Virus record (IMG/VR): IMGVR_UViG_3300032233_001500 | Span: 12,767-76,766 of that record | Direction: 5' to 3' (one strand) | Source of the DNA: a virus | Taxonomy: Duplodnaviria > Caudoviricetes | Length of the DNA: 64,000 bases | Shown: in pieces, positions 18,125-54,700 of the stretch | Layout: each line of letters starts with the position of its first letter | How positions within the stretch are numbered: the stretch's first letter is position 1 | Program-made: the position numbers and the translations under genes | The notes under the pieces: generated by a model | What the model saw: only the letters and a program-made list of their open reading frames with translations | What the model was told of the DNA's origin: nothing | Databases searched by the model: none

Positions 18125-21100
18125 TTATTTATTTTTTAGATCTTCAACTTCCTTACGAAGGATGTCAATTTGAACTTGTTGTTCTTTAATTGCTTCAATA
18201 AGTACAGCAACAATGTTTCCGTATGCAACACTCTTCATTCCAAGATTATCTTCGGAAACTATCTCTGGAATAACTTCTTCTACTTCTTGTGCAATTAATC
18301 CAACATGGATTTTTGTCTTGTCTTCCTGATCTTTTCTTGTGAAAGTAACACCATTCAGGCTAAGTACTTTTTCAAGACCATTTTGAATGATTTCAATATT
18401 ATCTTTAAGTCTAATATCAGAACTTGCAGTAACAGTACCTGCCATTGTAAGATTACCAGACATATCCATCTGCAATCTATTTGCAGATGCAGACCATCCA
18501 CCAATTCGGAGTACATTATCAGAATCTAGTCCCATATTAACTGCATAATTACCTGATCTATGGAATGACATAAATGCAGCGTTAGTACCTGTAGCATATG
18601 CCTGAAGTGGAGGAGAGCTTAAGGCACCTAAAGTTGTGCCTAGATTTGATTGGAAATTGATTGCATTGGTTACGGTATCTCCACCACGAGCAATTGCATA
18701 AGAACTATAATTACTACTGTCTACGAGTTTTTTCCAGGCTGCCCAAGTTGTAGTTGAACCACTTCTTTGCCAAATATTGCCGTTATCAGTAAATCCAAGT
18801 TGGTGAGATAAACCACCACTCCAATCTGTTGAACTTCCATATTGGCGGAAAGTCATCTCACCAAAATAAGTTCCACCATCACTTAAACTTTCTGTAGAAT
18901 TTGCTTTGAAGTCAAATACTACACCTTGATTTATAGTTTGTGGCGTAGTAACAGTATTCCTACTATCGGTTACTACAACTTGAGTTGCAGTAGAAGCATT
19001 ACCACTTAATGTTGCAGTAATCGTACCAGCACTAAAGTTACCAGAAGCATCACGAGCAACAATAGTTGATACGGTGTTTGCTGTTGCAGAGTTTAATCCA
19101 TCAAGTAAATCAGCATTTAAGTTTGTTACTAATGTAGTAGAAGAAACTGTGAGTGGTGCAGTTCCTGTGGATACTGTGGATGTCAATGTAGTTGCCGAAA
19201 GAGCTCCAACAAGTGTTAATGCTCCACCACCAGTTAGAGTAGCAGCAAGAGTTGTTCCACCATACCACTTAAATCCTGTTGAAGTAGTTTGGGTTCCAAA
19301 CCAAAGGAATCCAGATTCAATTCCCAATCCATAATCTGTAGTAGACCCAGTTACTCCACTATAAAGAGCAATCTTAAGTCCAGCACTTCTTGTCGTAAAT
19401 GCAGGGGCTGCAACACCAGTTGTACCAAAATCAATCCAGTTATTTGTTGCACCACTAAAGGTTAATTGTCCAGCAGTTGTTGAACCACCACCATTTAAAG
19501 TTGCTGTAGTATGAGTACCTGTTCCGTTACTAATATTACCACTAAAAGTAGCAGTAATAGTACCGGCACTGAAGTTACCCGAAGCATCACGAGCAACAAC
19601 AGTTGATACCGTGTTTGCAGTTGCTGTCAATAATCCATTATGATACTGAGCATTCAAGTTTGAAACTAAAGTTGTTGAGGTAACTGTTAGTGGTGATGTA
19701 CCTTGTGTAATATTGGAAATTAATTGAGTTCCAGTAACTGTTCCAGATGCAGTTGCATTACCAGTTTGATCAACATTGAATATATTGGTTGAACTTTGAT
19801 TCCTGAAGAATATTGATCCCGTATATTGCAGATAGAAGTTTGAATTATATGCTTGGAGTTTATATCCCTTTTCACCACTCCAAGTTCCACCAGTAGTAAG
19901 AACAATGTCTCCGTTTGCCCCTACCGTAACTGCGCCACTGGCTCCACTATTAAATGATACGGAACCAACGAATGTTGGAGTTGTAGTTAAGTTATAAACA
20001 CTACCATTACCAAGTAAAATTGCACCATTTGATGGAAGACCACTAAGTCCAGTACCACCACGAGAAATTGGAATATTGCCTGAAGTATTAGCAATATCCA
20101 AGTAGTAAGAAGCCGCATTACCGTTAAAGGTTGCAGCATCAATATCACCACCTTGAGCCAAGGTCTTAATGTACACTGACCCTGTGCCATCACCAGTTAT
20201 ACCAAATGTAGAACTCTTAAATTTAGCAACACCAAGAGTGGAGTATAAATCACCAGTAGCTAATACTCTATTTAAAGTTAACTGAACGTTTCCATAATAA
20301 GTATTAATTCCCACTCCACCTGATGCTAAATCTGCACTACTATAAGTAACACCAATTGGTTGAGTCGTACCAATTCCAACAGAACTTACTGCTTTACTCC
20401 AAGTCGAATCTCCCCTCAAAAATGTTTGATTATTTGCAGTTCCAGAAGCAAGTCTGGAGGGAACTAATATACCAGAGACAACGTTAGCAGCATCAATTGT
20501 ACTAGTTGCTAAAAGAGCCCAGTTGGAGAGAATAGATGACGATGTATTTACCGTAGCGTTATACGTAACATTTTGTTTTGTTAATGTCATAGTGCCGCCG
20601 GAATTGGCACTAGTTAAATCAACTGGATTATAAAGAAGTCCATTTGCAGATAGGATAGCATCAGCTTTAATCGAATGTAGTGTAAATGTATTGGTAGTTC
20701 TGGAACCAATGTAATAATAATTACCAGTTGTGACTCCAGTTGGTGTATTACCACTAACTTTTACTGGATCCCCCTGAGATAATCCATGATTTGCAAAAGT
20801 TAATTGATTTGTATCCGTATTTACCCCAACTCTTGTAAGTTTGTGAGTACCTGTACCACTAGAAGTGTAGTCTTTTTTAGTTACAAGAGCATATGTAGTA
20901 TAAAGTTCTACAGAAGTAACACCAACTCTCTTAATGTAATAAGTTTCAGCATCAAGTAAAGGTGTGAGAACATTTCCGCCTTGCGTGGAATAAACTACGG
21001 GATCTCCATCGGAGAAGGTATTAATACCAATTACAATTCTATCATTTATGAAGTCTACATTACCTCCAATACTTACATCTGTTGGAGAAAATGTTGATGT

Positions 21101-24100
21101 TAAAGCAACTCCTACGCTTATACTTGTAGAAATAGATCCCGCATTCCCGTCTTGAATATAGTCAGGTAAATTAGCGGATCCGGTAAATTTGTTATTATTT
21201 GTTAATGATAAGTATAATCTAGTTTCAACTGATCCAACTTTAGTAGTAAAGTTGGATCCACCAGTTCTACCTCCGATAGAAGCTGGATTATTCAATGTAA
21301 GCGTATCATTAACTGCGTAATAACGTCCACCAGTATTAATTGCAACATTGGAAACTGTACCAGCAGCGCTAACCGTAATTGTAGCTGTCATACTGGTCCC
21401 AATACCACTGGCAGAATCCAATTGAATTCCAGTGTAAATACCCGCAACCAAGTATCCAGAACCCCCTACAAGAGTGTTTAGAGACAATCCAACACCCCTT
21501 ACAAGACCCGTAGTACCATACCCAACATAAGTGGGTGCAGTAACAACACCGATAGCAGCACCAGCTGATACGGTACTAGTTACAACAGCTCCATTTGCAA
21601 AGTTATATACTGTATTATTATCAAGAATTAAATATTGACTATAAACATCACTAATCATAACCCAAGAATTTGACGGTTCAATAACAGTATCACCACTAAA
21701 TAAATTTGTGGCTGGTATTGTATTGACAAGATAAATTCTTCCCCCATCAGTGGATGATTTGAAGTAATTAACTGTTTTTGGTGGAATTAAGTCTGCATTA
21801 ATTTGTCCAATAGAATTGAGTTGCACAACTCCACCTGGAATAGCATTAGTCGTTAAATTTTTATCAATAAATGAACCAAGTCTGTTGTTGAGGAATGATC
21901 TAGTAGCCAATTGAGTTGGTACACGATAATCCTGTGGACCAGAAATTTCATTATCACCAAGTCCTGCATCGATTGAGAATTCCGTAATTGCTGTACCACC
22001 AGAAAGACTTAAACGAAGACTATCAAGCGTACCAATTGTAACAGTATTATTGAAAATAATATTACCGGTCCTATTATATGCCGTAATAAAATTACCAACC
22101 TTAAAGTCGCCAAGTTCGTTTGTACCAGTTGAGTATACACGGCCACCAAATTCGCCAACTTGTTCCCTACCATCTATCGATAAACCTCCATTTTGCGGTA
22201 ATGCATTATAATCTGTGCCGGAACCTGCATATTCCCACGCATGGGAATTTGCATTAATTATGGATGGTCTATGGAAATGGCAACGATAGTTTTCTGGTAG
22301 AGAAGAAATACCTGTAATAACTGTACCAGAATTTGTGGAATCTACTTTGAAATAAGTTGTATAGTAGGTGCTGAGACCAGCAACGTTACTGACTCCAATT
22401 GAAATTGGAGATGGACTGTGATCAATAATATCAAGATTTGTTGTTCCATTTGAAATCTGGAAGAATCTAAGATTTCCTCCAGAAGATTCTACAGAAACTA
22501 CCAATTGTCTCGTAGAATTGTTGTAAGTATATGCAAAACCAACTGCTGTTCCACCAACAACTGTTTGGGTAATTTGTCTTCCAGAAACAAATCGTGCAGT
22601 ACTTCCAACACCAGCAAGTGTCAAAGTCTGATAGTTGTTGTGAGTAGAAAGTACCGCCTTATTGAAAAAGTCTTGATTATTTTTTACAAATGTATTAATA
22701 CCTGTAGTTGATGATGTTAAATCAACAACTCTTGTTAGACTATCATCTTCTGTAAGTTTAAATGTATTTGAATTGATATATGAGATATAATACTGGTTGC
22801 CATTAACTAGTCCACCAATTATTCTTTGTGGTAAAGCTTGTTCATCTCCATAATAAATTACACTATCACCTGCACTAAATGGATGTGAAAGTGAAGTAAT
22901 AGTATCTAATGAAGTATCTACTGCAGTTGCAGCATTAACTTCCAGTGTTACTGTAAGTGGTTTGAAATTAGAAGTTCTGTCAATCAAATTATCATCAAAA
23001 AATCTTAGAACGTAAAGATCTTGATTGATTCTACCAAGACCAATAACTGTGAGAGTCTGTAATCCACCACTAGTGCCGGTCAAGGCAATTCTTCCACGAT
23101 CAAACCTAAAGGAATTTGAACTATATCCTTGAGATCTTAATGCATATAATCCAAAGTTAGTTGCAGAGTTTGTAATGGATAGATACCCACCAGATTGGCA
23201 TAATGATCCATATTTACAGAAAATTTGGAAACAAGAAACAACTTGAGCATAACCATCATTAATTGTGCGCCAACCAATGCCACCAAAAGAAGTCATTGTA
23301 AAGGTTGCAGCAACCATGGATTTACCAAATTCAGGTTGTGAGCCAGCTACAGGATTTTCACCTTCTTCCGGAATAATTGCTTGGTTCGGAGAAGAAACTT
23401 TAGAACCATCTACAAGAATACCATTTGCACCCAAGAATGATATAATAGAACAGTTTTGGATGTACGGTGATCTGGTGATGCTAGGTTTAGTGGTCTTAAC
23501 GGCATAACCAGTCCTACTTACGCTAGTATCTGAGGGATCATCAAAAGCTACAGCATAATCAAATGTATATTGTGGAACACCTGCAGCATCCGCATAATCC
23601 TTCATCGCAAATCCGGTTACATAACAACCATTTCTTACACGGAATAAATCTTTACCCGCATTCTGTGGTCGAATGATAGTATTTCTAAGGTTGTCTCCAA
23701 TAATTGCAATATCTTCATAGAGAATAATTGGATTATCTTCCAAATATTCACCAGCTTCACATATGATAGCAATTGGATTTGATTTAGACGTTGGGGATAC
23801 AATTGTTGGAGCTGCAGTTGATCCAATTCCAATAATACTTGTAATAACCCCGACCAGAGTTGCAATACTACTCAATACGTTTGCACATCCAGTAGTAGCA
23901 TAACCAACTGGATTTACAGAATCATCATAAGCAATAGTAAAATCATAAGTTTGATATACAGATGTTTGATATAAACCTACTGGACGAGTAATTGATGGAG
24001 AATAAGTAACGCCTTGACCAACAATTGTAGTGATAATTCCAACAAGAGTATTGATGTTACTTCTTACGTTTGCACATCCAGTAGTAGCATAACCAACTGG

Positions 24101-27100
24101 ATTTGCAGAAACATCATAAGCAATTGATAAATCTTTGACTTGTGCAGTAGATCCTACTCCAACTTGATAGGATACAGGAACTGTTATATTATTGATAATA
24201 TAACTAGAAATGCCAGCAATATATCTAAAAGAATCAACGGTTTCTACTTGTTCTCCAGTTACATAACTAGTACCGAGTCCACTCCAATATGAAACACCTG
24301 CGCCAACGGACTTATAATTACCACCGTACTTAACATCATATGCAAGAGCATCAACAATATATCCAACATCTCTAAGACATTTAGTTCTACTATAAGTTGG
24401 ATTGGACAATAATCCAGGATAAATTGCAGTTACATATCCTACAGCTTCTGCAGCAATATAATTTTTGTTTAGAATAAGTAATCTAGAAGCATCATCGTAT
24501 CTTCCGCCTGGATCTGCTAGTGGAACATTATTGATAATATATTTAGAAATATCTACAATATGAGTAAAGGAGTCAATAGTTTGGATTTTTTCACCATCAA
24601 CATAACTTGTACCGACACCACTATAATAAGATAAACCAGCTCCTACTGACTTAGAATTACCATTATAACTAAGGTCATAAGCAAGAGCATCTACAATATA
24701 CCCTACGTCTCTATAACATACATCTCTATAATAATTTGCATCCGTAGTAATTCCTGGATATGTTGCAGTTAAGAATCCTACAACTTCTTCTTGAATGAAT
24801 GTTCTGTTCTTAGTGAGTAGATCAGCAGCATCCAAAAATCTACCAGGAGGAAGAACAAATGATTCAAATGAAGCTAATTGTGCTGCTTTCTTAACTGATT
24901 TAACTGGTTTTGTTTTACCATCGTTTGTATCACTACCATTTGTCGCCGAAACATAAAGTCTATTTTCATACAAACCACCAGGGTTGGTAGTAAATCCAAG
25001 ATTACCAGAAGCATCAACTGCTAAAACTTGACCATCCTTACCTGCAGTTGGTGGTAAAGTTAATGTATAATTTGTAGCTACTCCAGTTTGGGAGAGTTTA
25101 AACGTTACTGTTTGATTTAATCCAGTATTGGTATTAACTCCAATAAAATTCAACGTTGAATTGATTCCAACTTGATTTGAATAGAAATTAGTAACATAAC
25201 CAGAACTGGATCGTATTGAATTTAATCCAGAAATATTTGAATTCTCTGGGTCAAGGGTTATACTTGCAGTACCAATAGTAAGAACTCCAGTTATTCTTGC
25301 ATTTCCAGTTACAATTAGATCGGTGGTTGCTCCACCAATAACAACATTTCCAAAAGTGGAAATTCCAGTATACTTGACATTTGTACCAGTAAGATTGGTG
25401 ATAATACCGGTTTGAACTTTCAATGTTGCAATACTTGCAACACCGGCATTGGTCATATCAAGATTGGATGATGTAACACTTGAAATATTACCACTTGCAA
25501 TTAAAGCCTGGGCAAAGGTGGAAATTCCCGTATATTGAATATTCTTACCAATCAAATTGGGAATTGTGCTGAGTCCGGTTGTTCCATCGGTAAATGTAAA
25601 ACTAGTTGTTTGAATACCCGAATTGAGTGCTGGAGTATTCAATGTTATTGAACTTGTACCAATAGAAACCACATAAGAATTGGCAGGAATATTTGTACCA
25701 GTTACTGCATATGAAGAATAAACTCCAAAAGTACTGACACCACTAATAATACTTGTGCCTGCTATTGATAATGTACCAGTATATGTAAAGGATAATCTAT
25801 CACTTGCTACAATTTTATTTGATATATTAAGTTGGTTTGCACTTAGAGTTGTTACTCCGGAAATAGATGCATCATTTCCAGATAAGATAATAGAAGAAAC
25901 GCCGACTGTAAGAATTCCACTTACTCTTGAATTTACGAGAGTACTACTGTTTAAAGTTGCTATTCCACTTACATATAATTGACTACCTATTCCAGAAGTA
26001 AAATATAACTCAGAAGCAACTAATCCAACACTGGAGATGGTAGTACCAATTCCAATATTAATATACGACGTGTCTACGGATAAAGAGCTTACAGTTAGAT
26101 TTCCAGTAACTATTCCACTGTTGATATAAGCTGTAGTAATAATACCCGTGTTTATTCTAGCTGTACTTATAGATCCTGTTGTAAAAATGCCCGCATTTAC
26201 AATCGCAGTATCTATAAAAGCAGTCGTAATAATACCTGCATTTACCAATAAAGTGTTTATAGTTGCAATTCCAATCGCATCAACATTAGTTGTATTTAAA
26301 GTTGTTATCGTTGCAACGCCACTAATATTGGAATTGGTTGATTTTAAAGTTGTTATCGTTGCAACACCACTTATATTAGTATAAGTAGAAGTTAAATTAG
26401 TAACTATTCCAGCATTAATATAAGCATTCTGAACAGTTTGTGTAGATATTATTGCATCTGTAATATTGGCTTGATTTAATGTAGTTACTCCACTTACGGA
26501 AGCACTTGTAAAAATACCAGAATTTGCCGTAACCGTGGTAAAAATTCCACGTCCTGCAGTAATGGTGCTTATATAAACATTTCCAAAGATTCCATTATCT
26601 ACATACAGAGTTGATATAGTACCAATTCCGGTAACATTGGAATTGGTGGAAGTTATAGTAGTAACTATTCCACTTTGAATGTAAGCGTTTTGAATAGTTG
26701 CCTGAGATGATCCTACATTCGTAATAATACCGCTATTAATATATGCATAATTTATAGACTCAATATTTACATTTGAATCGGTAACAAATTGTTTAGTAAT
26801 AGTGGCACTAGTAATTCCAACAGTACCAATTGTACCTCTAGTAATAGTGGCACTAGTAATTCCAGCGGTTGTAATGCCTGCATTATCAATAGTAGCATTA
26901 TTTACAAGTAATGATACCGCTGCAGCATTATTTGTATTTAAAACATCAACGTTAATTTGACCAGATAATAAATCCGTAAAAGAAAAGTCTGTAGCAAATC
27001 CTGAATTAGAAAATACAAAAGTTATTGGTCTAGTAAAAGTAAATGATGTTGCACCAGAAGTATTAAGACCAGTATTTGTAACAATTCTATTTACACCAAT

Positions 27101-27895
27101 GCTATAAATTGTCGTTATTCCAACTGTACCACCAACATAATCTACATAGTCACCGACTTGTAAAGAAGTTGTAGTGACTCCAGTAATTGCAGTTGTACCA
27201 ATTCCAGCAGAAGTGCCCGTTCTAGTAGTAATACCTAGAGTACTACTAGAAGCCTGAGAAATGGTTACAGTACCATTACTTGATGTGGAAAGTCCTGTAA
27301 TCGTAGTATTATTTAAAACTCCATTACCACTAACAGAATCTCCAACATTTAGTGGAGCAGTAGTCATCAATGTCGCTATTCCAACAATGACTGTTCCGTT
27401 ACTGGTTAAGAAGTTGCCAGTTGCTGATATAGTAAAGTCTATAGTTGCTGGATTAATAAATACAGTCCCCAATCCCAAAGAGGTTACTGTAGTAGTAGGA
27501 TCAATATACGTACCACTTACGGCATAACCAACTCTAATATTATTTGTTGCAATACCGATAATTTTTGTATTCGGGGTTCCAGTAATAATACCAGATCTTG
27601 TTACTGGGCCCTGATATGTTACTGTTAAACTTCTTGCGTTAATACTTCCCTGTATATCTGTATCACCAATTACTTGGAATTCTTTTGTTAAAGAACTAGT
27701 TCCAATACCTACACCAGATTTGTTTATAATTTGTTGAGTCGCTGCAGTACCAACTAGAGGCCATCCTCCCGGAGTAACTCCATCATGTACTATTGCTACA
27801 TTTTTTGATGTATCAACTGTTAATTCTGCTAATGCTCCAGTGAAAACCGAATGTTCTGCACTTGATCCTCTTCTTAGCTGTACCTGCTTCGTCAT
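18125..27895 (-). CDS. Long tail fibre/receptor-binding protein with Mtd_N-like start, beta-helix, phycobiliprotein-like inserts and C-terminal intramolecular chaperone (peptidase S74-like)
   Basis: MTKQVQLRRGSSAEH...HDGVTPGG start; IICEAGEYLEDNP...IIGDNLRNTII beta-helix entry; SDIRLKDNI...GLIAQEV...VAYGNIVAVLIEAIKEQQ end. Confidence 0.9.
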   Translation of the reverse strand: MTKQVQLRRGSSAEHSVFTGALAELTVDTSKNVAIVHDGVTPGGWPLVGTAATQQIINKSGVGIGTSSLTKEFQVIGDTDIQGSINARSLTVTYQGPVTRSGIITGTPNTKIIGIATNNIRVGYAVSGTYIDPTTTVTSLGLGTVFINPATIDFTISATGNFLTSNGTVIVGIATLMTTAPLNVGDSVSGNGVLNNTTITGLSTSSNGTVTISQASSSTLGITTRTGTSAGIGTTAITGVTTTSLQVGDYVDYVGGTVGITTIYSIGVNRIVTNTGLNTSGATSFTFTRPITFVFSNSGFATDFSFTDLLSGQINVDVLNTNNAAAVSLLVNNATIDNAGITTAGITSATITRGTIGTVGITSATITKQFVTDSNVNIESINYAYINSGIITNVGSSQATIQNAYIQSGIVTTITSTNSNVTGIGTISTLYVDNGIFGNVYISTITAGRGIFTTVTANSGIFTSASVSGVTTLNQANITDAIISTQTVQNAYINAGIVTNLTSTYTNISGVATITTLKSTNSNISGVATITTLNTTNVDAIGIATINTLLVNAGIITTAFIDTAIVNAGIFTTGSISTARINTGIITTAYINSGIVTGNLTVSSLSVDTSYINIGIGTTISSVGLVASELYFTSGIGSQLYVSGIATLNSSTLVNSRVSGILTVGVSSIILSGNDASISGVTTLSANQLNISNKIVASDRLSFTYTGTLSIAGTSIISGVSTFGVYSSYAVTGTNIPANSYVVSIGTSSITLNTPALNSGIQTTSFTFTDGTTGLSTIPNLIGKNIQYTGISTFAQALIASGNISSVTSSNLDMTNAGVASIATLKVQTGIITNLTGTNVKYTGISTFGNVVIGGATTDLIVTGNARITGVLTIGTASITLDPENSNISGLNSIRSSSGYVTNFYSNQVGINSTLNFIGVNTNTGLNQTVTFKLSQTGVATNYTLTLPPTAGKDGQVLAVDASGNLGFTTNPGGLYENRLYVSATNGSDTNDGKTKPVKSVKKAAQLASFESFVLPPGRFLDAADLLTKNRTFIQEEVVGFLTATYPGITTDANYYRDVCYRDVGYIVDALAYDLSYNGNSKSVGAGLSYYSGVGTSYVDGEKIQTIDSFTHIVDISKYIINNVPLADPGGRYDDASRLLILNKNYIAAEAVGYVTAIYPGLLSNPTYSRTKCLRDVGYIVDALAYDVKYGGNYKSVGAGVSYWSGLGTSYVTGEQVETVDSFRYIAGISSYIINNITVPVSYQVGVGSTAQVKDLSIAYDVSANPVGYATTGCANVRSNINTLVGIITTIVGQGVTYSPSITRPVGLYQTSVYQTYDFTIAYDDSVNPVGYATTGCANVLSSIATLVGVITSIIGIGSTAAPTIVSPTSKSNPIAIICEAGEYLEDNPIILYEDIAIIGDNLRNTIIRPQNAGKDLFRVRNGCYVTGFAMKDYADAAGVPQYTFDYAVAFDDPSDTSVSRTGYAVKTTKPSITRSPYIQNCSIISFLGANGILVDGSKVSSPNQAIIPEEGENPVAGSQPEFGKSMVAATFTMTSFGGIGWRTINDGYAQVVSCFQIFCKYGSLCQSGGYLSITNSATNFGLYALRSQGYSSNSFRFDRGRIALTGTSGGLQTLTVIGLGRINQDLYVLRFFDDNLIDRTSNFKPLTVTLEVNAATAVDTSLDTITSLSHPFSAGDSVIYYGDEQALPQRIIGGLVNGNQYYISYINSNTFKLTEDDSLTRVVDLTSSTTGINTFVKNNQDFFNKAVLSTHNNYQTLTLAGVGSTARFVSGRQITQTVVGGTAVGFAYTYNNSTRQLVVSVESSGGNLRFFQISNGTTNLDIIDHSPSPISIGVSNVAGLSTYYTTYFKVDSTNSGTVITGISSLPENYRCHFHRPSIINANSHAWEYAGSGTDYNALPQNGGLSIDGREQVGEFGGRVYSTGTNELGDFKVGNFITAYNRTGNIIFNNTVTIGTLDSLRLSLSGGTAITEFSIDAGLGDNEISGPQDYRVPTQLATRSFLNNRLGSFIDKNLTTNAIPGGVVQLNSIGQINADLIPPKTVNYFKSSTDGGRIYLVNTIPATNLFSGDTVIEPSNSWVMISDVYSQYLILDNNTVYNFANGAVVTSTVSAGAAIGVVTAPTYVGYGTTGLVRGVGLSLNTLVGGSGYLVAGIYTGIQLDSASGIGTSMTATITVSAAGTVSNVAINTGGRYYAVNDTLTLNNPASIGGRTGGSNFTTKVGSVETRLYLSLTNNNKFTGSANLPDYIQDGNAGSISTSISVGVALTSTFSPTDVSIGGNVDFINDRIVIGINTFSDGDPVVYSTQGGNVLTPLLDAETYYIKRVGVTSVELYTTYALVTKKDYTSSGTGTHKLTRVGVNTDTNQLTFANHGLSQGDPVKVSGNTPTGVTTGNYYYIGSRTTNTFTLHSIKADAILSANGLLYNPVDLTSANSGGTMTLTKQNVTYNATVNTSSSILSNWALLATSTIDAANVVSGILVPSRLASGTANNQTFLRGDSTWSKAVSSVGIGTTQPIGVTYSSADLASGGVGINTYYGNVQLTLNRVLATGDLYSTLGVAKFKSSTFGITGDGTGSVYIKTLAQGGDIDAATFNGNAASYYLDIANTSGNIPISRGGTGLSGLPSNGAILLGNGSVYNLTTTPTFVGSVSFNSGASGAVTVGANGDIVLTTGGTWSGEKGYKLQAYNSNFYLQYTGSIFFRNQSSTNIFNVDQTGNATASGTVTGTQLISNITQGTSPLTVTSTTLVSNLNAQYHNGLLTATANTVSTVVARDASGNFSAGTITATFSGNISNGTGTHTTATLNGGGSTTAGQLTFSGATNNWIDFGTTGVAAPAFTTRSAGLKIALYSGVTGSTTDYGLGIESGFLWFGTQTTSTGFKWYGGTTLAATLTGGGALTLVGALSATTLTSTVSTGTAPLTVSSTTLVTNLNADLLDGLNSATANTVSTIVARDASGNFSAGTITATLSGNASTATQVVVTDSRNTVTTPQTINQGVVFDFKANSTESLSDGGTYFGEMTFRQYGSSTDWSGGLSHQLGFTDNGNIWQRSGSTTTWAAWKKLVDSSNYSSYAIARGGDTVTNAINFQSNLGTTLGALSSPPLQAYATGTNAAFMSFHRSGNYAVNMGLDSDNVLRIGGWSASANRLQMDMSGNLTMAGTVTASSDIRLKDNIEIIQNGLEKVLSLNGVTFTRKDQEDKTKIHVGLIAQEVEEVIPEIVSEDNLGMKSVAYGNIVAVLIEAIKEQQVQIDILRKEVEDLKNK

Positions 27896-42771: not shown

Positions 42772-42778
42772 TATTTAG
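42772..42778 (-). promoter_or_regulatory. Late promoter variant CTAAATA
   Basis: TATTTAG overlapping the gp7 stop, upstream of gp8. Confidence 0.5.
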
Positions 42779-45700
42779 TTACTTAATAGACCCTTTGTTC
42801 TAATAACTTTAGGTGAAGTAGTTATTCCAGATAATCCGCCATCGTTATAAACACTAAAACTTTGTGGAATTCCTAAAGATCTATTTTGATAATCATAAAT
42901 TACACCCCAACTATATCTACCATAAAATCCACTAGTATTGATACCAGTATTATTTGATCCTCTAGCATAAACTTGAACATAATTTTCTGTTGAGGATTTT
43001 GGAGCAAAATTGCAAGTAACTGTTACTATTCCAAGAACGGCATTTCCAGAAGTTACACTTTCCACTTTATAAACACCATCAATAAATGAAACAGCCGTAC
43101 CAACTTTTGAATTTGGGTAATTTGACATCCCCCCAAGAGTAGTTGTAATTCCTGTCAATGCGTGACCAACAGCAACATTACTATCTTTAATAATGAAATA
43201 ATCCCCTACCTGCATCTGAGGGTATAATACGCCAAAAGAATTCAATGAAGAATATCCAATACCAAGTCCATTGTCATAATATTCAGATTTTAAGACAAAC
43301 TCTATTTTTGGAGTAGTTGTTCCAATTCCTGGTGTTCCAGTTACAAAAGTAGTAACTCCTATAATAGTACCAAAATCACCTTTTGCTTTTATTGATTTAA
43401 TTGTTTCCTTTTTAAATACATCTTGTTCAATAATAAATGGAGGAGGAGAATTTTGATCATATCCAAATCCACCATCAGTCATAACTATTGAAGTTACTAT
43501 TCCACCAGAAACAAAAGCTGTTCCTGTTGCTTGGTGATATACTGGAGTTGATAATACACAAGTACCTCCATATCCAACAAAAACGTAAGTTCCATCATAT
43601 CCCAAAGAAGGAAGGCTTATTACATCTTTTATTAGATTCAATTGATTGGTACTCCTGTATATCCAATTACTGAGATCAAAAGAATAATAAAGGTCTCCAG
43701 TAGAAGTTATTGCTACATAAAGTCCATCAGTATAGTCTATAGTTGTAAAATTAACAGAAACATTTGTAGTAATCAGAGTATACGTGGATTTGGAACTAGA
43801 TATCGCAACAACTCCACTATTTCCTACTATAATAAATTTATTATTGACATATACTACTTTATTAAGATCACTGCCGGTGAATGATTGTTCAATATCCCAG
43901 ATTAAACCATTACTAGAAGTAAGTACAGTTCCATATTTACCAACAGCAACGAAGTATCCTGATGTTTGAGTGGAAGAGAAATCAACACTATTCAAATCAT
44001 TCAAAGTCTGAGAATATCTACTTCTAAAATAATCCGTTCCTATACCCATTCCTGCAAATATAGATCCTCCTGTACCAACGGTAACAAAGGTATCATATGA
44101 ATTTCCATAAGCAACATCAGTTAAAGTTCCATTGTATGAAGTCAAATTCTTACCAATAGGTCCAAGACCAGGCAATATTATTTCTTCATAAAGAGGAATT
44201 TGCGACCAAGAAGATATTGTAGAAGAATAACCGGTAGATTTTGTAACAAAAGCAGAACTACCAACAGATACTAACATTGATGTAGTTCCTAATCCAACAG
44301 AAGTAATTGCATTAAAGTTTATGGTAGATCCATATCCCAAAGAAGAACTAATCCAATTTTGACCATCAATACTTGTTACTAAAGCTGAAGAATTACCTAC
44401 TCCAACAAATAGATTTGAATATGAAATTGCATTTATTTGATAAGTGGTTGGAATTCCATTAGAATACTGCCAATTGTATATTGGATCTTTTCTCTTTATA
44501 TAAGATTTTGAAAATACAATTTTTGGAGAAGATGTGTAAGCATATCCAACTCCAGGATAAGTTATAATTGGGTTATAAACTGTGGATGCCGAAGATACTA
44601 CACTTAATCCATATGCACCATCAATATCTTTATTTTCAGTAATCAAAATTTCACATAGATCCTCACCTAATCCATCCACATCAGTAAATATTGGATAAGC
44701 ATTATCCACATAAACTTGTATATCTGTGGGTGTAACTGGTTTGATGAGAGTTGCAGTGGGTTTTATGGTACTCTTTAAAGTAGGTCTCTCTTTTGAGTAT
44801 AAAACTCCATTAATAACTTTATCATTTGTTTGTTTTTTATAAGATAACGGTCTAATATCAGTATTATCAGTATTAATACCAACACTACTATATGGGAATG
44901 TTTTAAATGAATCAGCAGTAGTTAGATTTTTAATTACTCTACCGAGTTGGTCAGTATCATAGACATTAGTAATATTTTTCCCAATTACTATTTCATCACC
45001 GACCTTTATTAGTTGTGGTGGATCTACCAGAACAACATCGAGAGAAGATCCTCTATAGTAAAGGATTGTGCAACTAGAATTTGGTTTTGGAGCCTCAGTA
45101 AATACAATTCTAGTTCCTTGTATAGAATATGCATAATTTGGAACTTGTAATATATCATTTACAAAAATTATAAAATTATTAGAAATATCCAAATCCGAAC
45201 CATCTAAGGTTTTAAGTCCTAGAGGTTGTATTACTCCATCAATATTTACATTTAAATCAAATTTCCTTTTACCTCCATCAAATTGATTGGAAATATTTTC
45301 AAAAATAAGAAATTGCCCTAGATAGAAACCAGAGAATTTATCCGTTTCGACCTCTTGGACTGTAAGTGTAAATGTACTAAATGCCGCACCAACTGATGGA
45401 TTAGTAGTAATTCCTGGAGCATATAAGGTATCACCAGATTTATATCCAGTACCAGGATCATCGATATAAAATCCAATGACACTAGAACCTTGTCCAACTG
45501 ATACTGAAATTTTAGCTCCTTGACCAACTCCAGATGCTCCCGTATAAGAAACACCAATATTACTATATGATGTAGGTATTCCAATTACAACATCTGGAAC
45601 TGAGGTTGTAGTGTATCCAGAACCAGGATTAACAATTGTCAATCCAGTGATTGTACCACTAGTCCCAACTATTGCTGTTATGCTAGCTCCAGATCCAATT

Positions 45701-48700
45701 GGAGATATTACATTTATTGATGGAATACTACCATATCCAAATCCAGAACCAATGAGAGTTATATTTGAGATTGTACCCGCAGCGGATACTGTTACCGTTG
45801 CAGCTGCACCAATTAATGGTTGATATCCAAATCCTGTGTTAACGGATACTTTTGAAATTTTACCTCCTTTTGGAGCACCAGAAATAAATTTAATAATATT
45901 CTGAGCCGATCCTTCTATAATATAATCGGAACCAGGAACTTGAAGTATATTATTAATTAGTATAATGGGATTATTATTAATTTCTGTTGGCGAATTTACA
46001 CCGTTATAAAGAGTTTGTGTTGTGGATCCATTTGAAAATAGTGTAAATTCAGTAGAAGCTGTTCCAGTAAAAGCTAGAGATATATCATCTAAAATAATAT
46101 TTTTATCTAGAGGTTGAGAAGCATTTAATTGTCTTGAGAATACTCTACCAGAAAAACTGGATGAAGTTTCCATTCCGACTGGACCTATAGGTCCATATGG
46201 AGGAGTAGTGAAATAAATTACATCTCCCAAGATATTATAGTTACCTCCCATAACTGTGCAAGAAGAGGATACGATATGTGTTCCTGCTAATGTGCCTAAT
46301 GATCCTCTATCAACTTCAACAGCATTTGAAGAAGAAATTCCAATAGTTTTTACCGTCAAATATTCATTGTCAATATTAATGATATCATTAGATCTCAATG
46401 AAGATATTCCAGATGAGATATTAATTATTGTAGTTGAAGCGCTAGAAACTGAAGAAGCTAAAGAAACATTTAATGATTTTCTATAAAGAGGAGATTGAAT
46501 AATTCCATCTATAGATATCAAAGTACTTGCATTGGAGTTTTTGTACTCGAAAGAATGATATCCAGTGCCAAGACCAGAAAGTGGTAGAAATATACTTGTG
46601 GATAACCCAGATACTTTAAATTCATTATCATTTAATTTATATACAAACAAACTTGTTGGCAATATTTTAGTACCTAGTTCCAAAGGAGAAACTTTAATAG
46701 TATCTGTTGGAGAAGATCCCCCAATGTATGTTCCAGAAATTGAAACCACTGACGTAGTTGCATATCCAGAACCACCAGTTACCACAGAAACATCTGATAT
46801 AAATCCATTACTATCTCTGGAAATATTGAATATTGCTCCACCAGAACCAGATTCGGGAACATTTGAATATGATCCATTTGCTTGACTTGGAATTTGGGTT
46901 GGAGCTGTAGATGATACTTTAAAAGATAACGTATTTGTCGGATTAGTTCCACCCAAATAAGTACCAGCTATGGAAACCGTATCTCCAACTGCAAAATTAG
47001 ATCCACCATTGAGAAGAACAATGGAGGTTGATATAGGTTGTCCAGTTGTTATTGAGTAAGAAATTAAAACATTAAATGTAGCTATTCCAACTCCATTTGT
47101 TCCATTTACAGAAGGATAAAGTTTAAAAGATGGTCCAACCGGAGATAAAGTAGTTGATATACCAGTTATTGACGTAGAAATGGAAACACTGTAACCATTT
47201 TCAAAAATAGCCGTACCTTTGTAATTAGAAACACTGATTAGAGTTGAAGTTATACCAGTTACATATGATGTAGTTGCTATTCCAATTGGACTTCCATTTC
47301 CATAATTATAAATTAATTCCTGACCTGTCTGATAGTTATGATTTGGAATTGTAAACTTGTTGTTTATAATATCAATCTTACTGGATGAAGATGCATCAAA
47401 TGTATGTTTGAATAAGGAAGTACCTTTATTAGTCAATTTAAACGTAGATAATCCTACTACTATGCCTCCCTCAGATAATGATGGATATGTAATTATTGGT
47501 GCATAACTTGTACCAAGTCCGATTATTGTGGTAATAATTCCAACATAATTACTAATTGATGTCCTAACATCAGCACAATCGGTAGTACCATAACTTTCTG
47601 TTGGAATTGCAGAAAGGCTTCCAGTCAAAATGGCAGTTGTGAGTATTCCAACTAGATTTGATACGTTAGTTTGTACATTTGAACAAGATGATGGCGAAGT
47701 ATTAAATCCAGTTATAGGATCTGGAACAATTGTCAAATCTTTTACATTTAATTGATTAGTAAGAGCTTGATTAATGTAATCCCTTGCAGATTTAAATGCA
47801 TAGACAGATTGTAATTCTTCACCAACTAAACCACTTGTTAAAGCTACTCCAGCACCAGTGAAATATTTTTTGGTTGCATAGATGATATGTTGATTTGAAC
47901 CAAAAGCAACATCCTCTGCGATAGAGTCAACAATATAACCTAGGTCTCGGTAACACTTATTTCCACCCGTTGTATAAGTCCCTACGTTAACTGATGGAAG
48001 TCCAGTAGTAGATCCTACACTAATGACAGATGTGACTATTCCAACTAAAGTTGAAATGGTATTTTGTACGTCTGTACAAGCAGAGGTATTTGTATTAGCG
48101 ATATTTCCACCACCACCTGCATATGTTGAAGGTCCAACGGAAACAGTAAGATCTTTAATTGTGAGATTGTTGGTAATTGCCAACTTCATTAAGTTTCTTG
48201 CTTGTGTAAAAGCATAGATGGATTGAGTTTCCTCACCTACCAATCCATTAGAAATAGGTACTCCATTATTAAAATATTGAAGAACAAATTGTCTAGAATA
48301 ATTATTACCGCCAGTAAATATGTCGGTAGAAACTGCATCAATAAAATATCCAAGATCTCTCTTACATTTTGACTGAGTAGTTGATATTCCAGTGTACACT
48401 CCAACTGTATTTGACCAAGAAGTGTTAATGATTTCAGTTTTATTTTGTTGAATTAGACGGTATGCATCATAATATCTTGATCTAGAGTTTGTTTGAAGAT
48501 CGCCTGGGAAATAAAAATCGGAAAATCCAATAGCAACAGAAGCTAAAGATTTATCTAAAATTTCACGACGATTTGCAACTATTAGATTTCTTGCGTCCTT
48601 GTAACGATAAAGATTAATATTTAATGGATCTTGGATCAAACTTAGATTGAATTGTTGCGAAACAGATGTTTGATAAAGAGTAGGTGGAGTTTGATTATTG

Positions 48701-51700
48701 ACAATATATTGTGCAAGAAATCTTACATAATTATATGCGAACAGAGTTTGCTCACTTTCATTTGCAACATAAGATATTCCAGCATTCCAATAAGCTAGAC
48801 CGGCTTCGACTGATTTATCATTAGAATTATATTTAATGTCGTGCGATAGTGCATCCACAATATATCCAACGTCTCTTTTGCAAGTAGTTGCACTATATGT
48901 TGTGCTCAATCCAATAGTTGGGTAATTATATTCTACAAATGCAACTACTTCCTCTTTTATAAATTCTTTATTTAAATCAATCAAATTAGAAGCATCCAAA
49001 AATCTTCCGATTAAATTAGAATCGGAAGAACCAGTAAACTGATTACTAATATCATCAATATTTACTGTTTTATTTGTTTTATTTAAAACATATGAAAGTA
49101 GAGGAATCGAGCTATAAAGATATACTTTTTCGATAGAATCATCTGGCAATAACTCATCTTCATAAACTTCTGCAAAATTATTTCTAGTTAACATTGAATT
49201 TTCATTGTCAATATTAACAATAGTTGATGAACTATTTGCATTCAAATTAATTTTCATACTGGTAGATTTTCCACTACCGACTTCATTTTGAGATGGTTTG
49301 GAATAAATTATCAAATCCGAAAATTCTTTAAATCCAGATGGATGAATAATAGATCTTACAGATTCTCTCCAAGTATCATAAGGTATCTCGCCTTTAACTG
49401 AATATGCAAATTTTTGATAATAGAAGTTATCAGATAATCTTTGTTGGAAGTCATTTAAAATACCAACCGAATTGTCAAGTAATCCAATTTTATCTCTAGA
49501 AACTCCCAGAGTAGCATTTAAATTAAAAACATTAAGAAACTCAATGGTTCCTTTTATATTTGAACGTTCTCCAACTAAAATGTCACCAGTAGTAAGGATG
49601 CCAACAGAATCATTAACACGCAATAGATTCAAATTATTATCCCAACCATTTTCCATTACAAATGCACTAAATTTTTGATTTGTAGAGTAAACTTTCTCTT
49701 TAGATAAGTAACTTACATTGTCATTCAAAATCATTTCAAATGATGCAACATCATTTTTATTAACTACTGTCCCATAATTGAAAGTGGAGTCATATGTTCC
49801 AAATGTTGACGTGTTAATTCCAGATATATCGTATGTAACCGTATTGTTATACGCACTGATATCAACAACAGTAAAATAACTGTAATCATAGTCGGCAGAA
49901 TTGAAATTAAGATAATTATTGGAGATAGAATCTGATGTCAATCTACAATTTTCGATAAAAATTTTGTCTCCAACAGCAAAAGGAAAATTAAATGCTGTCA
50001 AACCAAATCCACTAGATATGAATTTATCTTCTACAAGTTCTAATATACAAGTGTTTGTAAGTAAATTTACTGTGATATTGAAAATTTCGTATCCATTTGA
50101 ATTTCTAGTTGGAAGTATTTCCAAAGGTCCACTTAAACCGGTTACATTTTTATCAACATTTACATTGACTACAGAACCACCAGAGATTGAACAGGACAAT
50201 TGAATTTCTGGATAATCTTTTACAACTAGTACTGGATTTGAATTATATCTATTACCACCAGTAATAATTCCAATATAATCTATAGTTCTTATATCTTTAA
50301 GTGCAATTATACCTGGAGTGGCGAGAGTGGGCGAAAGAGTTGGGTCAGTGGGATAATCAAATCCATCTTTTATTCGTTCTAAAGTTTTGACTTTTCCAAC
50401 ACTATTAGATAATACTTTTACAACAGCATTTTTACCTCTAACTGTTTCTATAGAAGTTACATAAGGTAATTTTGTATATCCTTTACCTGCATAATTAACT
50501 TTTAATCTTTTAATGCCCCCAAAAGCATTAAAAGATTTAGTAGAATACGTAAAGTTGGATAAAGATAAGTTATAAGTTTCATCATATGACAGGGATTTAT
50601 TATTTTGTATTGAAAATGTCGTATCGCCCAATACCGTAACTACATAAGTATCATTTAATGAATTTTGTTTAGTTGAAATTTTATTAGCACCAATAACTAA
50701 ATTATCGGAAGAAATTTGATTCTTTTCTGTTCCAACCAATCCTTTTGTTAATAAATTATAATAAAAACTAGTTGGAAGATGTGAATTGGAAAAATCTATA
50801 GTAACATATGCATTAGTATTACCCGGTAATATAGTCCCCCTATCTATTGCAAATCCATCATCAACAGTCCCTACTATCTCAATTCTCTTCGCAAAATTAT
50901 TGTCATAGAAAAATTCCAAATTCATATTCAATAAACTTGAATCTGAAAGATCAAAATTTACTATATTTCCTTGGAATATTTTTATGGGAGGATTTATGAA
51001 ATATAAACTTTGATTACTCCCACCAGTTGAAGTTAAATTAATGTAATTTGAAATTTTAATGTCAGAGTAATTGTTACACAATTTTATATACTTGTCACTA
51101 ATTTTTAATACATAATAAACTCCATAATTAGTTAATCCACCAATTGGATTACTAGAAATATAAACTACTTTATCACCCGTTTTTATTTCATAGAGATAAT
51201 TTGAAATATCGATCTGATCATTGCTCACCGAAACGTTAGAATTATTAAAAGAAATTTGATTCAAAAGTACTTTCCTATTAACAGAATCGTATATTACTTT
51301 TATTTGTTGAGTATCGTTTGTATTTACTTGTAGATCAATAGTATCATTACTTACCAATCCATGATTAGTTTTTGTAGTAAAAATTCCGACTGATTGTGAA
51401 ACTTTTCCGGTAATTTTTGCATTGGTTGTAACTAAAGAATGTGCATATCCAATTACTCCAAATGCTTCTGTCAAATTCCAAAACTCTAAAGAATTTAATT
51501 GAGTTCCTATTCCAGAACTTGTAGTAAATCCTAAAGTAGATAGTCCCACATAATCTTTACCCAAATTAACTGCATAGACATTTTGACCTTTTTGCAGTTT
51601 GAAGGAAACCCCAGATCCTACATTATTTACTACAAGAGAAGTTCCACCAATACCACAATCATAAATTAATGATTGACCAGTAAAGAATTTGTGATTGGGT

Positions 51701-54700
51701 ACATAAATGCTTCTTGTTGGGATAAATCTAATTTGTGTTGATGATGTACCGATGCCAGTAATTGTTCTAGTAACTCCGTCAGTACCGGTTCCAACAGTAC
51801 TTTTTGGATCAAAAAATGTTGTAGTATTTTCAAAAGTTACATCTTTAATTTGTTCATTTATTTTGAACTCAAATTTTGTTGGCAATAATATAACATTTTC
51901 AAGGCTACGGGTATGTGGTGAAGGATTTGAGAATCTATTAACATAAAGTCTAGAATTTTCTTCTGATACTCCAGTTACCAATAAAGTTTCAGTTGAAATA
52001 CCAATAAAATCATTTACTTCAAAACCAGTTATATCCTTAACAGTTATAAAAGTTGATACTCCAGTAATTGAAACAGATGGAATATCATTGGATAACTCTA
52101 CAGTTTTATTTTTAACAGAAATATATTGTATCCCTTCAAGAATAGAAGAAGTTATAGTAGAAATTCCAGATATTAAAACTGGTTGTTTATCTATTAATGA
52201 GTGTGGACTACTCGTTTTTGCCAATATAGTTGAATTTTTGGTAATAAAATTCACATCAGTAATATTACTACTCACAAGAGAATAATTTGTTATACCGACT
52301 CCAATAAGTTCCGATACTACTATATTTGCAGGACTTCCACCCGTGCCATCTCTATTGAGAATCATTCTGTCATTAATTTGATAATTTTCACCTGGAGAAA
52401 ATACAAATGTTTCTGGAGCTGAAGCAGTTTGCAATTCCGAAACTCTAAATTCTTGTTTGGAAGTATCCGATACTTTATCAATTAAGTCATATGAAGAACT
52501 TGAGGAATTTAAATAGTATGAACTTACATTCCTACTTAACTGACTTGAAAAAATATCCAGATCTTGATTAAATTTTGGAAGGAAATTCTCTGTAATTGGA
52601 ACATCTTTAAAATAATTACCAATAATGTACGGGAAAGCTGGTGTTGAATTATAATTTGAATCTACGGATATTGTATAAAAATAAGCATAAGTTCCATCAG
52701 GATATTGTGGAGTTACACAAAATCTTCCATTATATTCATCTAGATCTCCAGATGCATTGTAAATATAATCAGATATAAAATATCCCGCTTGTTGCAATTG
52801 TGGTCTAATAAGAGGATCGTTTTCCTTATTAATTACATAACTAGAAACCATTCTCTTAACACCACCAGTTCCATCCGAATTGGTATATCCATATGGACCA
52901 TAAATTGGATTTCCATCATAAGCAAACCCAAGAATGGGTGAGTGATTTGGTGTTCCAAAAGAATTTTCTAAATTATTATTTGTAAAATTATCTAATTTTT
53001 TATATCTTAATTTTTTGGGGATGTAGAAATTAGTAAACTGTAATTCCAGATTTGGATTTTTATTTGGGTATAAAACTCCATCGTCATCACTTGAAATAAT
53101 ATTTGATGATTTAACTACTTGATTTATACTCCAATTAGTTACGTTCGCTAAGAATTTAGCCCCAGTCCCGCGATTTGTTAAACTTAATGTTGTATTTGAA
53201 GATGCATATCCAACTCCACCATTAGAAACATTTATTGAAGTTAAAGATCCATCACTAGATACTGTTGGAATTATTTTTGCATAACTTCCAACTCCTTCAA
53301 TGGTTATGTCAGAATCTTGCCTGTATCCATTACCTTTATTGACAATTTTGACATCTACGATTGATCCATTAAGTACAATTGGTTTTAAAATTGCCTGAGA
53401 TGTAACACTAGAAATCCCAACATCAGGTCTTCTATGGAAATTAATTATATCAGCACACCCATACCCAGAACCAGAATTTTCCAAATAAACATCTGTAATT
53501 TTACCCAATATAACTGGGTCCAAAACAGGAGCAATTGCAGTAGTAGATCCAATAGAAATTGATTCTACACTAATTTGAATTGGTGGATAAGAAATTATAT
53601 GAGTTCCTACTCCAAGACTAGAAAATGAAACGTAATTTTTATTTAAATAATTTTGATTACTTATACTTGCACCAATACCTGCCGAAGATAATTTAAATTT
53701 ATTGGAATCAATTACTGTAATATAATAACTAGTAGATGTAGATAACCCAGAAATTGGTGCATTTGTTGTGGAGTAATTAACCAATTCTCCACTATTAAAT
53801 CCATGATTTATGGCAAAAAAGTAAGAATCAAAAGTGTTTATTCCAACAGTTTTATTATCTGCAGAAAGTACTGATGGAACTTTTATAACTCTATTTGAGT
53901 ATCCTTGTCCAGAATTTTTAACATATACTTCTGTAATTGTATTTTTATTTTTTAAACTTTCAAAATAATGAAATCCAGAAGAGATGAATGGGAAACTTAT
54001 AGCATTTGTTTGTGATATTGCATCCGAATTGGTTTTATATATTTTTACCAAATTTGTACTAGGATTTACAATACCAATAAAATAATGGGAACCATCTATC
54101 AATCCATCTATATTTGGGTTTTCATTTGCATTGTAGATTATTTCTTCATAGTTATTAAAAGAAATTCTATCTAAAAATTGTATGGTATTGTTTATAGTAT
54201 CTACATTTAATTGTGCATTAAATCCATTAGAAACTCTAGATTTTACAAAATTACTTTCTAAAACACATCCACTCCCATTTCCACCAGAAATAGTAATCTT
54301 GGGTTTCTCTGCATATCCAATTCCAGGGGAAATTACATTTATTTTTTTAACATCTCCAATAACAATTGGAAACACTTTTGCCCCAGAACCGGCATTATCA
54401 ATAATACTAATCGTTGGTCTATTAATAACATCATAACCATCGCCACTGTCAGTTACTTTAACTTCTGACAATTTTCCATAAAATACACTTTCATCAAAAA
54501 CAGTAGGAGATAGTATTTCTACGCCATTGACCAAAATTCCTATTGATTTATTAGCTGTAGTTCTTTGATTTAAATCATCAAATTCAGTATATTTTTTATT
54601 AAAGTTAAATTTCTTAAGGAGTTTTTGATTTTTTAATACTTTATTTTGATATCCATTTTTAATTACAGTAGCACTAGAAATGCCAGAAGATGATATTTGA

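Follow-up and report, generated by a model that had tools for sequence, protein, structure and literature searches.

Phycobiliprotein-like modules with a conserved bilin-attachment motif in tail-fibre and baseplate-type phage proteins

In this study, a helical module carried in tandem by giant structural proteins of a marine tailed phage of cyanobacteria is confirmed, by its sequence, its fold and its attachment motif, to be genuinely related to phycobiliproteins, the light-harvesting pigment proteins of the host. The window, i.e. the whole 64,000-nucleotide stretch that was analysed (positions 12,767 to 76,766 of IMG/VR record IMGVR_UViG_3300032233_001500; Duplodnaviria, Caudoviricetes), holds two copies in a tail-fibre gene and three further copies in a 4615-aa baseplate-type ORF (42775-56622), and the Cys-x-Arg-Asp (C-x-R-D) motif is invariant in all five (Table 1). 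A preliminary description, made from the DNA letters alone, had placed two phycobiliprotein-like stretches in the fibre and had suggested that the baseplate protein carries the same module. Both stretches do lie in the minus-strand ORF 18125-27895, with their Cys codons where that description put them, and the module is indeed common to the two proteins.

Table 1. Modules, short helices and flanks of the two module-bearing ORFs (window coordinates)
Feature	Position	Strand	Evidence or remark
Giant tail-fibre gene, 3256 aa	18125..27895	minus	ORF list and translation; holds modules 1 and 2
Upstream flank (aa 981-1008), motif earlier called beta-helix cap start	24872..24955	minus	Precedes first module directly; kept in 8 orthologous fibres
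Module 1, phycobiliprotein-like (aa 1019-1129), C-x-R-D Cys codon 24716-24718	24509..24841	minus	phmmer self-match iE 4.9e-40 and alignments
Module 2, phycobiliprotein-like (aa 1132-1245), C-x-R-D Cys codon 24377-24379	24161..24502	minus	AlphaFold2 model, Foldseek, VIA-align, PDB profile matches
Short helix repeat 1 (aa 1258-1295), H-like, Cys at head (codon 24074-24076)	24011..24124	minus	Translation
Short helix repeat 2 (aa 1321-1358), H-like, Cys at head (codon 23885-23887)	23822..23935	minus	Translation
Downstream flank (aa 1375-1660), presumed beta-helix domain	22916..23773	minus	75-88% identity among orthologues whatever the module number
Module copy 3 (aa 2540-2652 of baseplate-type ORF 42775-56622)	48667..49005	minus	phmmer iE 1.5e-30; alignment
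Module copy 4 (aa 2716-2827 of baseplate-type ORF 42775-56622)	48142..48477	minus	phmmer iE 1.7e-9; alignment
Module copy 5 (aa 2857-2961 of baseplate-type ORF 42775-56622)	47740..48054	minus	phmmer iE 3.2e-10; alignment

A module cassette in the tail fibre

The fibre ORF has a fibre-type N-terminus, as indicated by Pfam family PF18454 (Mtd_N) at aa 5-41 (E = 8.7e-10), and a C-terminal chaperone domain, PF13884 (Peptidase_S74), at aa 3159-3213 (E = 1.3e-16). PHROG tail-fibre families also match this ORF (phrog_5342, tail fibre, E = 4.5e-192). Its two modules are helical, each about 112 aa long, and share 57-59% identity. In orthologous fibres the same conserved flanks enclose 1, 2, 3 or 7 modules, and this variation between constant flanks implies that the module is a discrete cassette, in agreement with the inserted module proposed in the preliminary description. 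Of the two short helix repeats in the fibre, the second is kept in all eight orthologous fibres, directly ahead of the downstream flank, and the first appears as one long helix in a low-confidence model (see below). For module copy 5 of the baseplate-type ORF, the flanking sequence holds an H-like helix in place of the N-terminal helices.

The downstream flank is presumed to be a beta-helix domain. The upstream motif weakly resembles the N-terminal start of lacto-N-biosidase, a beta-helix glycosidase (E = 0.39-0.86). No Pfam beta-helix family was matched by the downstream flank region at E ≤ 1, and no PDB sequence was matched by aa 1370-1700 of the fibre or by a profile of eight orthologues of this flank. 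The AlphaFold2 model of the insert and its flanks (aa 961-1660, 8-row alignment) had a mean pLDDT of 35.8, which is too poor to judge the fold.

Sequence relationship to phycobiliproteins

When a profile of 52 module copies was compared with 177,635 PDB sequences, 39 matches were obtained, all of them phycobiliproteins (best E = 0.0022). In the HMM alignment the Cys, Arg and Asp of the module fall on Cys84, Arg86 and Asp87 of CpcA, which bears out the likeness to the alpha-phycocyanin motif noticed earlier. The phycobiliprotein family PF00502 was the commonest weak Pfam match (7 of 52 copies, best E = 5e-4), and a relative with 19 copies has a faint precomputed match to it; module 2 of the window had no Pfam match at E ≤ 10. 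In NCBIfam, the sole match was phycocyanin alpha (TIGR01338, E = 5.6e-4), with scores of 13.6-19.9 bits against a cut-off of 269, so that the curated family cut-off was not reached. The resemblance is thus beyond chance, with one family surfacing in all three collections, at E-values that are marginal (about 1e-3) and carried mainly by some 20 residues around the motif. An ESM Atlas feature search returned only DUF6273 matches with low recognition and was uninformative. No paper describing this module family was found in the literature.

The motif is strongly conserved. Across 1647 copies from 150 proteins, the Cys of C-x-R-D is present in 96%, the Arg in 95% and the Asp in 99%. Jumbo phages without psbA yield the same values: they keep the Cys in 95% of 77 copies and encode their own bilin synthesis genes; loss of the Cys, named in the preliminary description as evidence against its view, is not what these phages show. 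Some further residues, for example an Asp 14 residues past the Cys, are invariant in the module and absent from phycobiliproteins.

Predicted fold

Structure prediction gave a fold that matches phycobiliproteins. The template-free AlphaFold2 model of module 2 (pLDDT 86.8) consists of six helices, and its top 50 Foldseek matches are all phycobiliproteins, with TM-scores up to 0.75 and E-values of 0.04-0.3. Aligned by VIA-align to residues 36-148 of phycoerythrin beta, the model gave Z 11.8 (rmsd 2.3 Å, 107 of 114 residues), a score to be read with the caveat that helical models may reach Z 11-13 without homology. In an independent structure search of 48,161 chains, ten bilin-binding globins ranked first (Z 9.2-10.8), including photocobilin, phycobiliproteins and ApcE, and ordinary sensor globins reached about 8.

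As modelled, the module is a truncated and not a whole phycobiliprotein, in which helices B to G are kept. The structural alignment begins at subunit residue 34-36, hence the N-terminal X and Y helices, which make the alpha-beta monomer of phycobiliproteins, are missing; the modules abut one another or a flank, leaving no space for the approximately 35 extra residues. At the other end, the model stops at about residue 148 of the subunit, and helix H would at best be a separate short helix. A short conserved helix, with the Cys absent there, comes after each module in the arrays of jumbo phages, and in the fibre two short H-like helices come after the two modules.

Distribution of the module, bilin genes and CpeT

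Among 50,697 isolate records the module was detected in cyanophages only, and one narrow peptide pattern searched against 185,579 species genomes gave no confirmed cellular relative. Relatives contain up to 35 modules, and module-bearing proteins in relatives adjoin portal and major capsid genes. Giant proteins of the psbA-less jumbo phages are filled with the module, and these phages encode heme oxygenase and bilin reductase. All six viral contigs longer than 200 kb with a bilin reductase carry 6-11 modules and none of them has psbA; two of the six are complete genomes (322 and 383 kb). Module, heme oxygenase and bilin reductase also occur together in the genomes G001 and G002. In the jumbo-phage relatives the two bilin genes are in the same genome as the module and not adjacent to it (about 150 kb apart in G002).

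The idea that bilin genes always accompany the module was rejected, as the two are separable in both directions. Heme oxygenase and bilin reductase are present and the module absent in P-SSM2 and P-SSM5, and bilin genes without the module were also seen in Pelagibacter phage Mosig and in near-complete contigs (two counted, among them one of 164 kb that is 98% complete). Conversely, the module is found in several isolates that lack bilin genes. No correlation of the module with bilin reductase was observed in cyanophage isolates, and the record from which the window was taken (76.8 kb, 38% complete) gave no bilin reductase match.

Most cyanomyoviruses carry the lyase gene cpeT, and in 18 cyanomyovirus isolates the number of modules tracks this gene: all 12 isolates with CpeT hold 3-9 modules, and the six without it hold 0, 0, 1, 1, 1 and 4. 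No CpeT match was found in 4 of 16 module-bearing isolates, nor in a complete jumbo genome, so that a strict dependence of the module on CpeT is rejected and the quantitative association stands. The Cys site known for lyases of the CpeT type is a different one.

Possible function

With homology, fold, conservation of the motif, behaviour as a cassette and distribution established, we assign a probability of about one half to the reading that a truncated bilin-binding globin cassette places pigment on the virion, most likely for light-dependent adsorption. The modules would be truncated domains of the phycobiliprotein/BBAG lineage (helices B-G, residues 36-148) that retain the Cys-x-Arg-Asp site at which phycobiliproteins attach and hold bilin. 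They would form a cassette of variable copy number between two conserved fibre parts and be reused in the baseplate protein. During infection each module would take up a bilin on its Cys, supplied by the host or, in jumbo phages, made by a heme oxygenase and a bilin reductase that the phage itself encodes. Attachment might be spontaneous, as in BBAG proteins, or aided by CpeT, the lyase of the phage. Fibre and baseplate of the completed virion would then both be pigmented, and photoprotection of the particle would be the second option for the use of this pigment.

Adsorption only in the light, independent of host photosynthesis, has been known for some cyanophages since 1979 and 2010, and light-sensitive tail fibres were proposed as its cause and never identified (PMC6628666). 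The putative bilin on the virion could account for such light-only attachment in some cyanophages. According to published phenotypes (PMC6628666), the light-dependent adsorbers P-HM2 and S-PM2 have 6 and 9 modules and the dark adsorbers P-SSM2 and P-SSP7 have none; this correlation draws on four or five phages, and phylogeny confounds it. The idea of a light switch is weakened by the photochemical inertness of BBAGs and of most phycobiliproteins (PMC10151467). We consider it rather unlikely that the modules of the mature virion hold covalent bilin and provide the phage with a photoreceptor of its own, absorbed light shifting the conformation of fibre or baseplate so that adsorption takes place only in light, with the same family as the missing acceptor for CpeT and for the bilin genes of psbA-less jumbo phages.

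A possible, though less likely, explanation of the modules is that their fold, taken over from an ancestor of phycobiliprotein type, now binds no pigment and serves only as a stiff helical spacer or decoration by which the length and geometry of the fibre are set. The Cys, Arg and Asp would then be kept for folding, for binding a metal or another small ligand, or for module-module contacts. A freely varying copy number, from 1 to 7 among orthologous fibres and as high as 35 in relatives, is as expected of a spacer, and the missing X and Y helices, the invariant residues particular to the module and the isolates that have it with neither phage bilin genes nor CpeT are consistent with the same view. 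On the other hand, a pure spacer is not expected to retain precisely the residues of the bilin site, all three of them, in about 96% of the 1647 divergent copies. A spacer role would also leave unexplained why the module is confined to cyanophages among isolates and why jumbo phages with bilin synthesis of their own have it.

It is improbable that the module acts in the infected cell and not in the virion, as a sink or carrier for bilins from degraded phycobilisomes or as a decoy for host lyases, its location in structural proteins being incidental. Cyanophages do carry other phycobilisome-directed genes, and the relation between module number and cpeT would fit. But the modules lie mid-protein, and the proteins are clearly marked as virion components by Mtd_N, the S74 chaperone domain and PHROG tail-fibre families; in relatives the modules are found beside the genes for portal and major capsid protein, and psbA-less jumbo phages have them too. 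A generic helical bundle that bears C-x-R-D by chance or convergence is hardly credible: although sequence E-values of just about 1e-3, Foldseek E-values of 0.04-0.3 and the similar Z-scores attainable by helical bundles would allow it, one family and no other surfaces in four independent libraries (PDB sequences, Pfam, NCBIfam, and structures searched in two ways), and sequence and structure alignments run in the same register and put the motif on the attachment site.

Related systems and significance

The closest known systems share only part of these features. Like the alpha and beta subunits of phycobiliproteins (PF00502; phycocyanin, phycoerythrin and allophycocyanin), the module has a globin-like helix arrangement over residues 36-148 and a Lys-Cys-x-Arg-Asp-x-Gly-Tyr stretch at the Cys84 bilin site, whereas it has about 112 aa instead of 160-177 and is a tandem internal domain of giant virion proteins, not a free antenna subunit. 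The ApcE core-membrane linker likewise has a phycobiliprotein-type domain (PDB 4xxi, Z 10.4) within a large protein of several domains, but that domain is single-copy and belongs to a phycobilisome scaffold protein. The bilin of ApcE is attached at a different Cys.

BBAG proteins are phycobiliprotein paralogues outside light harvesting (Rockwell et al., 2023; PMC10151467). C-x-R-D is the bilin-attachment motif of phycobiliproteins, BBAG-1 and BBAG-3, and the latter two attach bilin without a lyase (PMC10151467). Compared by description only, BBAGs resemble the phage modules in having C-x-R-D and in occurring in genomes with heme oxygenase and bilin reductase, as in jumbo phages. They are free-standing cellular proteins clustered with bilin reductase, whereas the modules lie in structural proteins, far from the bilin genes. 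The globin domain of photocobilin/photoglobin (PDB 8j2y and 8j2w), the top match of the search independent of Foldseek (Z 10.8 over 100 residues), is a bilin-binding, light-sensing module within a larger protein; in contrast to the phage modules, that lineage binds biliverdin without C-x-R-D (PMC10151467) and is fused to a B12-binding domain, with an identity of 12%.

Cassettes of heme oxygenase and bilin reductase occur in phages with predicted heterotrophic hosts, and their purpose was stated to be unknown (PMC11480375). The present view of phycobiliprotein history leads back to globins of heterotrophic bacteria (PMC10151467). A domain that binds pigment, sited on the virion parts that trigger infection, would be one candidate answer to three puzzles, namely light-only adsorption, the bilin gene cassettes of phages with predicted heterotrophic hosts, and cpeT. 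If this is true, it would represent the first pigment-bearing phage particle and would add a phage branch to phycobiliprotein history. If the domains prove to be colourless, they would still be a clear case in which phages have built giant fibres with a reused antenna fold of host type.

Phycobiliprotein-like modules in the tail fibre and baseplate-type proteins

The window covers structural genes of a T4-like cyanophage, and its minus strand carries every large gene; the virus record containing it is 76.8 kb in length, with an estimated completeness of 38%. One 3256-aa ORF has an Mtd_N fibre domain at its start, a Peptidase_S74 intramolecular chaperone at its end and matches to tail-fibre PHROGs. 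The two phycobiliprotein-like stretches quoted in the preliminary description of this fibre were both found in its translation, and their Cys codons lie exactly where they had been placed. They belong to two adjacent modules with a mutual identity of 57-59%. The same description had assigned the module to the baseplate as well as to the fibre, and a search of the window indeed revealed three further modules in a 4615-aa baseplate-type ORF, in addition to the two copies in the fibre ORF. All five copies keep the Cys, an Arg at +2, an Asp at +3, a Gly-Tyr pair and two more Asp residues.

Coordinates of the modules and associated features in the window
Feature	Window position	Strand	Fibre residues (aa)	Remarks
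Tail-fibre ORF, 3256 aa	18125-27895	minus		module cassette inside
Fibre module 1		minus	1019-1129	about 112 aa; Cys codon 24716-24718
Fibre module 2		minus	1132-1245	about 112 aa; Cys codon 24377-24379
Short helix repeat, first copy			1258-1295	Cys at head, codon 24074-24076
Short helix repeat, second copy			1321-1358	Cys at head, codon 23885-23887
Weak partial match	22298-22405		1831-1866	second half of module; iE 0.032
Baseplate-type ORF, 4615 aa	42775-56622			three further modules

The fibre modules are followed by two short helix repeats. The Cys heading each of them is cyanophage-specific, because the equivalent helices of jumbo-phage arrays lack it. In the baseplate-type ORF, the third module has lost its N-terminal helices and has an H-like helix at its start instead, and two additional H-like helices come after it. 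The weak partial match lies far downstream of the fibre cassette and may be a degenerate fragment or a chance similarity.

In orthologous fibres from viral contigs, the flank upstream of the cassette (aa 981-1008) is conserved and stops just ahead of the first module, and the downstream flank (aa 1375-1660) shows 75-88% identity. Between these flanks we found one module in locus L008, two in the window and L001, three in L013, L014, L024 and L039, and seven in L069. Such variation within conserved flanks identifies the module as a discrete insert, as had been proposed from the sequence of the window. The two flanks are putative halves of a beta-helix cap. The motif in the upstream flank has a weak likeness to the start of a beta-helix glycosidase; for the downstream flank, neither Pfam nor PDB sequence searches with the flank and with a profile of eight orthologues matched any beta-helix family or structure.

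Relationship between the module and phycobiliproteins

The profile search and structure prediction suggested at the outset were both carried out, and both point to phycobiliproteins. Viral contigs yielded 576 confirmed relatives of the module, and a profile was built from an alignment of 52 copies. Against 177,635 distinct PDB sequences, this profile had 39 matches, all of them phycobiliproteins (best E-value 0.0022), and module positions 3-58 were aligned with CpcA residues 40-103, which places the Cys, Arg and Asp of the module on Cys84, Arg86 and Asp87. When the whole fibre region of eight orthologues was used as a profile, nearly all PDB matches were again phycobiliproteins, at two distinct module positions; the other three were weak matches to alpha-glucosidases (E about 0.6). 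In a Pfam search of the 52 copies, PF00502 was the most frequent weak match (7 of 52, best E 5e-4), and the sole match among 18,950 NCBIfam models was phycocyanin alpha (E 5.6e-4, far under the family cut-off).

A template-free AlphaFold2 model of fibre module 2 was confident (pLDDT 86.8) and contained six helices. Among the matches listed in a Foldseek search of the PDB (about 40, to rank 48), all were phycobiliproteins or phycobiliprotein-based proteins, with TM scores up to 0.75 and E-values of 0.04-0.3. Alignment of the Foldseek matches with VIA-align superposed 107 of 114 residues on residues 36-148 of phycoerythrin beta (Z 11.8, rmsd 2.3 Å). Used independently of Foldseek on 48,161 representative chains, VIA-align returned bilin-binding globins (photocobilins, phycobiliproteins and ApcE) as the top ten (Z 9.2-10.8), and ordinary sensor globins scored about 8. 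Each of these sequence and structure lines is marginal singly, but jointly they agree on one family and one register. We conclude that the module belongs, in truncated form, to the globin lineage of phycobiliproteins and their paralogues, the bilin biosynthesis-associated globins (BBAGs): it has helices B to G and lacks the X/Y helices. Any equivalent of helix H would be the short helix that comes next.

Distribution of the module family

The module family occurs widely, both among cyanomyoviruses and among jumbo phages that make bilin. By tblastn, the module was detected in 385 of 50,697 isolate phage records. One of the 385 is a 'Marine virus' record, and all others are titled Synechococcus or Prochlorococcus phage or cyanophage. 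With a query from a jumbo phage, all 58 isolate records matched were cyanophages. The family is large in metagenomes and includes giant proteins with up to about 35 tandem copies, whose periods are about 110, 140 or 160 aa; arrays with longer periods have their own short helix after every module. Many of these giants come from jumbo phages of 250-570 kb without psbA, and the capsid protein of these phages has its nearest counterparts in Sinorhizobium, Vibrio and Pseudomonas jumbo phages.

Bilin genes and adsorption phenotype

Bilin cassettes have been reported in phages thought to infect heterotrophs, where their purpose was called unknown (PMC11480375). In two jumbo genomes (G001 and G002), we found heme oxygenase adjoining a ferredoxin-dependent bilin reductase. 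The module is present in 12 of 31 reductase-bearing viral contigs. Among the 12 are all six that exceed 200 kb, including two complete genomes (322 and 383 kb); psbA was found in none of the 16 contigs tested. A universal link between bilin cassette and module was rejected, as the cassette occurs without the module in Pelagibacter phage Mosig and in two near-complete contigs. At the G002 locus (L086:4641-11601; IMG/VR 3300032236_001613), there is a 26-nt overlap between the genes for heme oxygenase and bilin reductase. Upstream of this pair lies an Hsp20 gene, and immediately after it come curli-secretion genes (CsgF-like and CsgG-like) and two ORFs, one with a FecR domain and one with a PA14 domain. 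Curli-type secretion genes are uncommon in phages, and their presence hints at a Gram-negative host for G002.

The beta-153 bilin site is the one served by CpeT-type lyases. In 18 complete cyanomyovirus genomes, we counted module matches and determined which genomes carry CpeT, bilin reductase and heme oxygenase. The 12 genomes with CpeT have 3-9 module matches each, versus 0, 0, 1, 1, 1 and 4 in the six without it (Mann-Whitney p 0.004, n=18, uncorrected for phylogeny). No relation was observed between module number and bilin reductase in these genomes (p 0.43). The only module-free isolates of the 18, the 252-kb Prochlorococcus myoviruses P-SSM2 (AY939844.2) and P-SSM5 (HQ632825.1), have heme oxygenase and bilin reductase and no CpeT match.

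Module counts of four phages were compared with published adsorption phenotypes (Liu et al. 2019, PMC6628666). The cyanomyovirus P-HM2 (six module matches) does not adsorb in the dark, and P-HM1 was reported to behave likewise; adsorption of the cyanomyovirus S-PM2 (nine matches) is light-dependent, independently of host photosynthesis. The cyanomyovirus P-SSM2 and the podovirus P-SSP7, both without module matches, adsorb in the dark. Module presence fits the phenotype in all four, which with n=4 is an anecdote and not a test. The same study considered light-sensitive tail fibres a possible cause of light-dependent adsorption. Dim red light is reportedly ineffective for adsorption of this kind.

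Possible role of the module

Here, we showed that this phage has, in its fibre and baseplate proteins, a domain related to phycobiliproteins that is arranged as a variable cassette and whose bilin-site motif is intact; we found no paper describing this domain. The C-x-R-D sequence is the bilin attachment motif of phycobiliproteins and of BBAG-1/3, and BBAGs attach bilin without a lyase (Rockwell et al. 2023, PMC10151467). Over 1647 module copies, drawn from the best 150 of 1353 representative proteins, its Cys, Arg and Asp are conserved in 96%, 95% and 99%, respectively. The main rival explanation is that the fold has been reused structurally, with no pigment. On the reading that we propose, the module would bind bilin, and the bound pigment may serve light-dependent adsorption or photoprotection.
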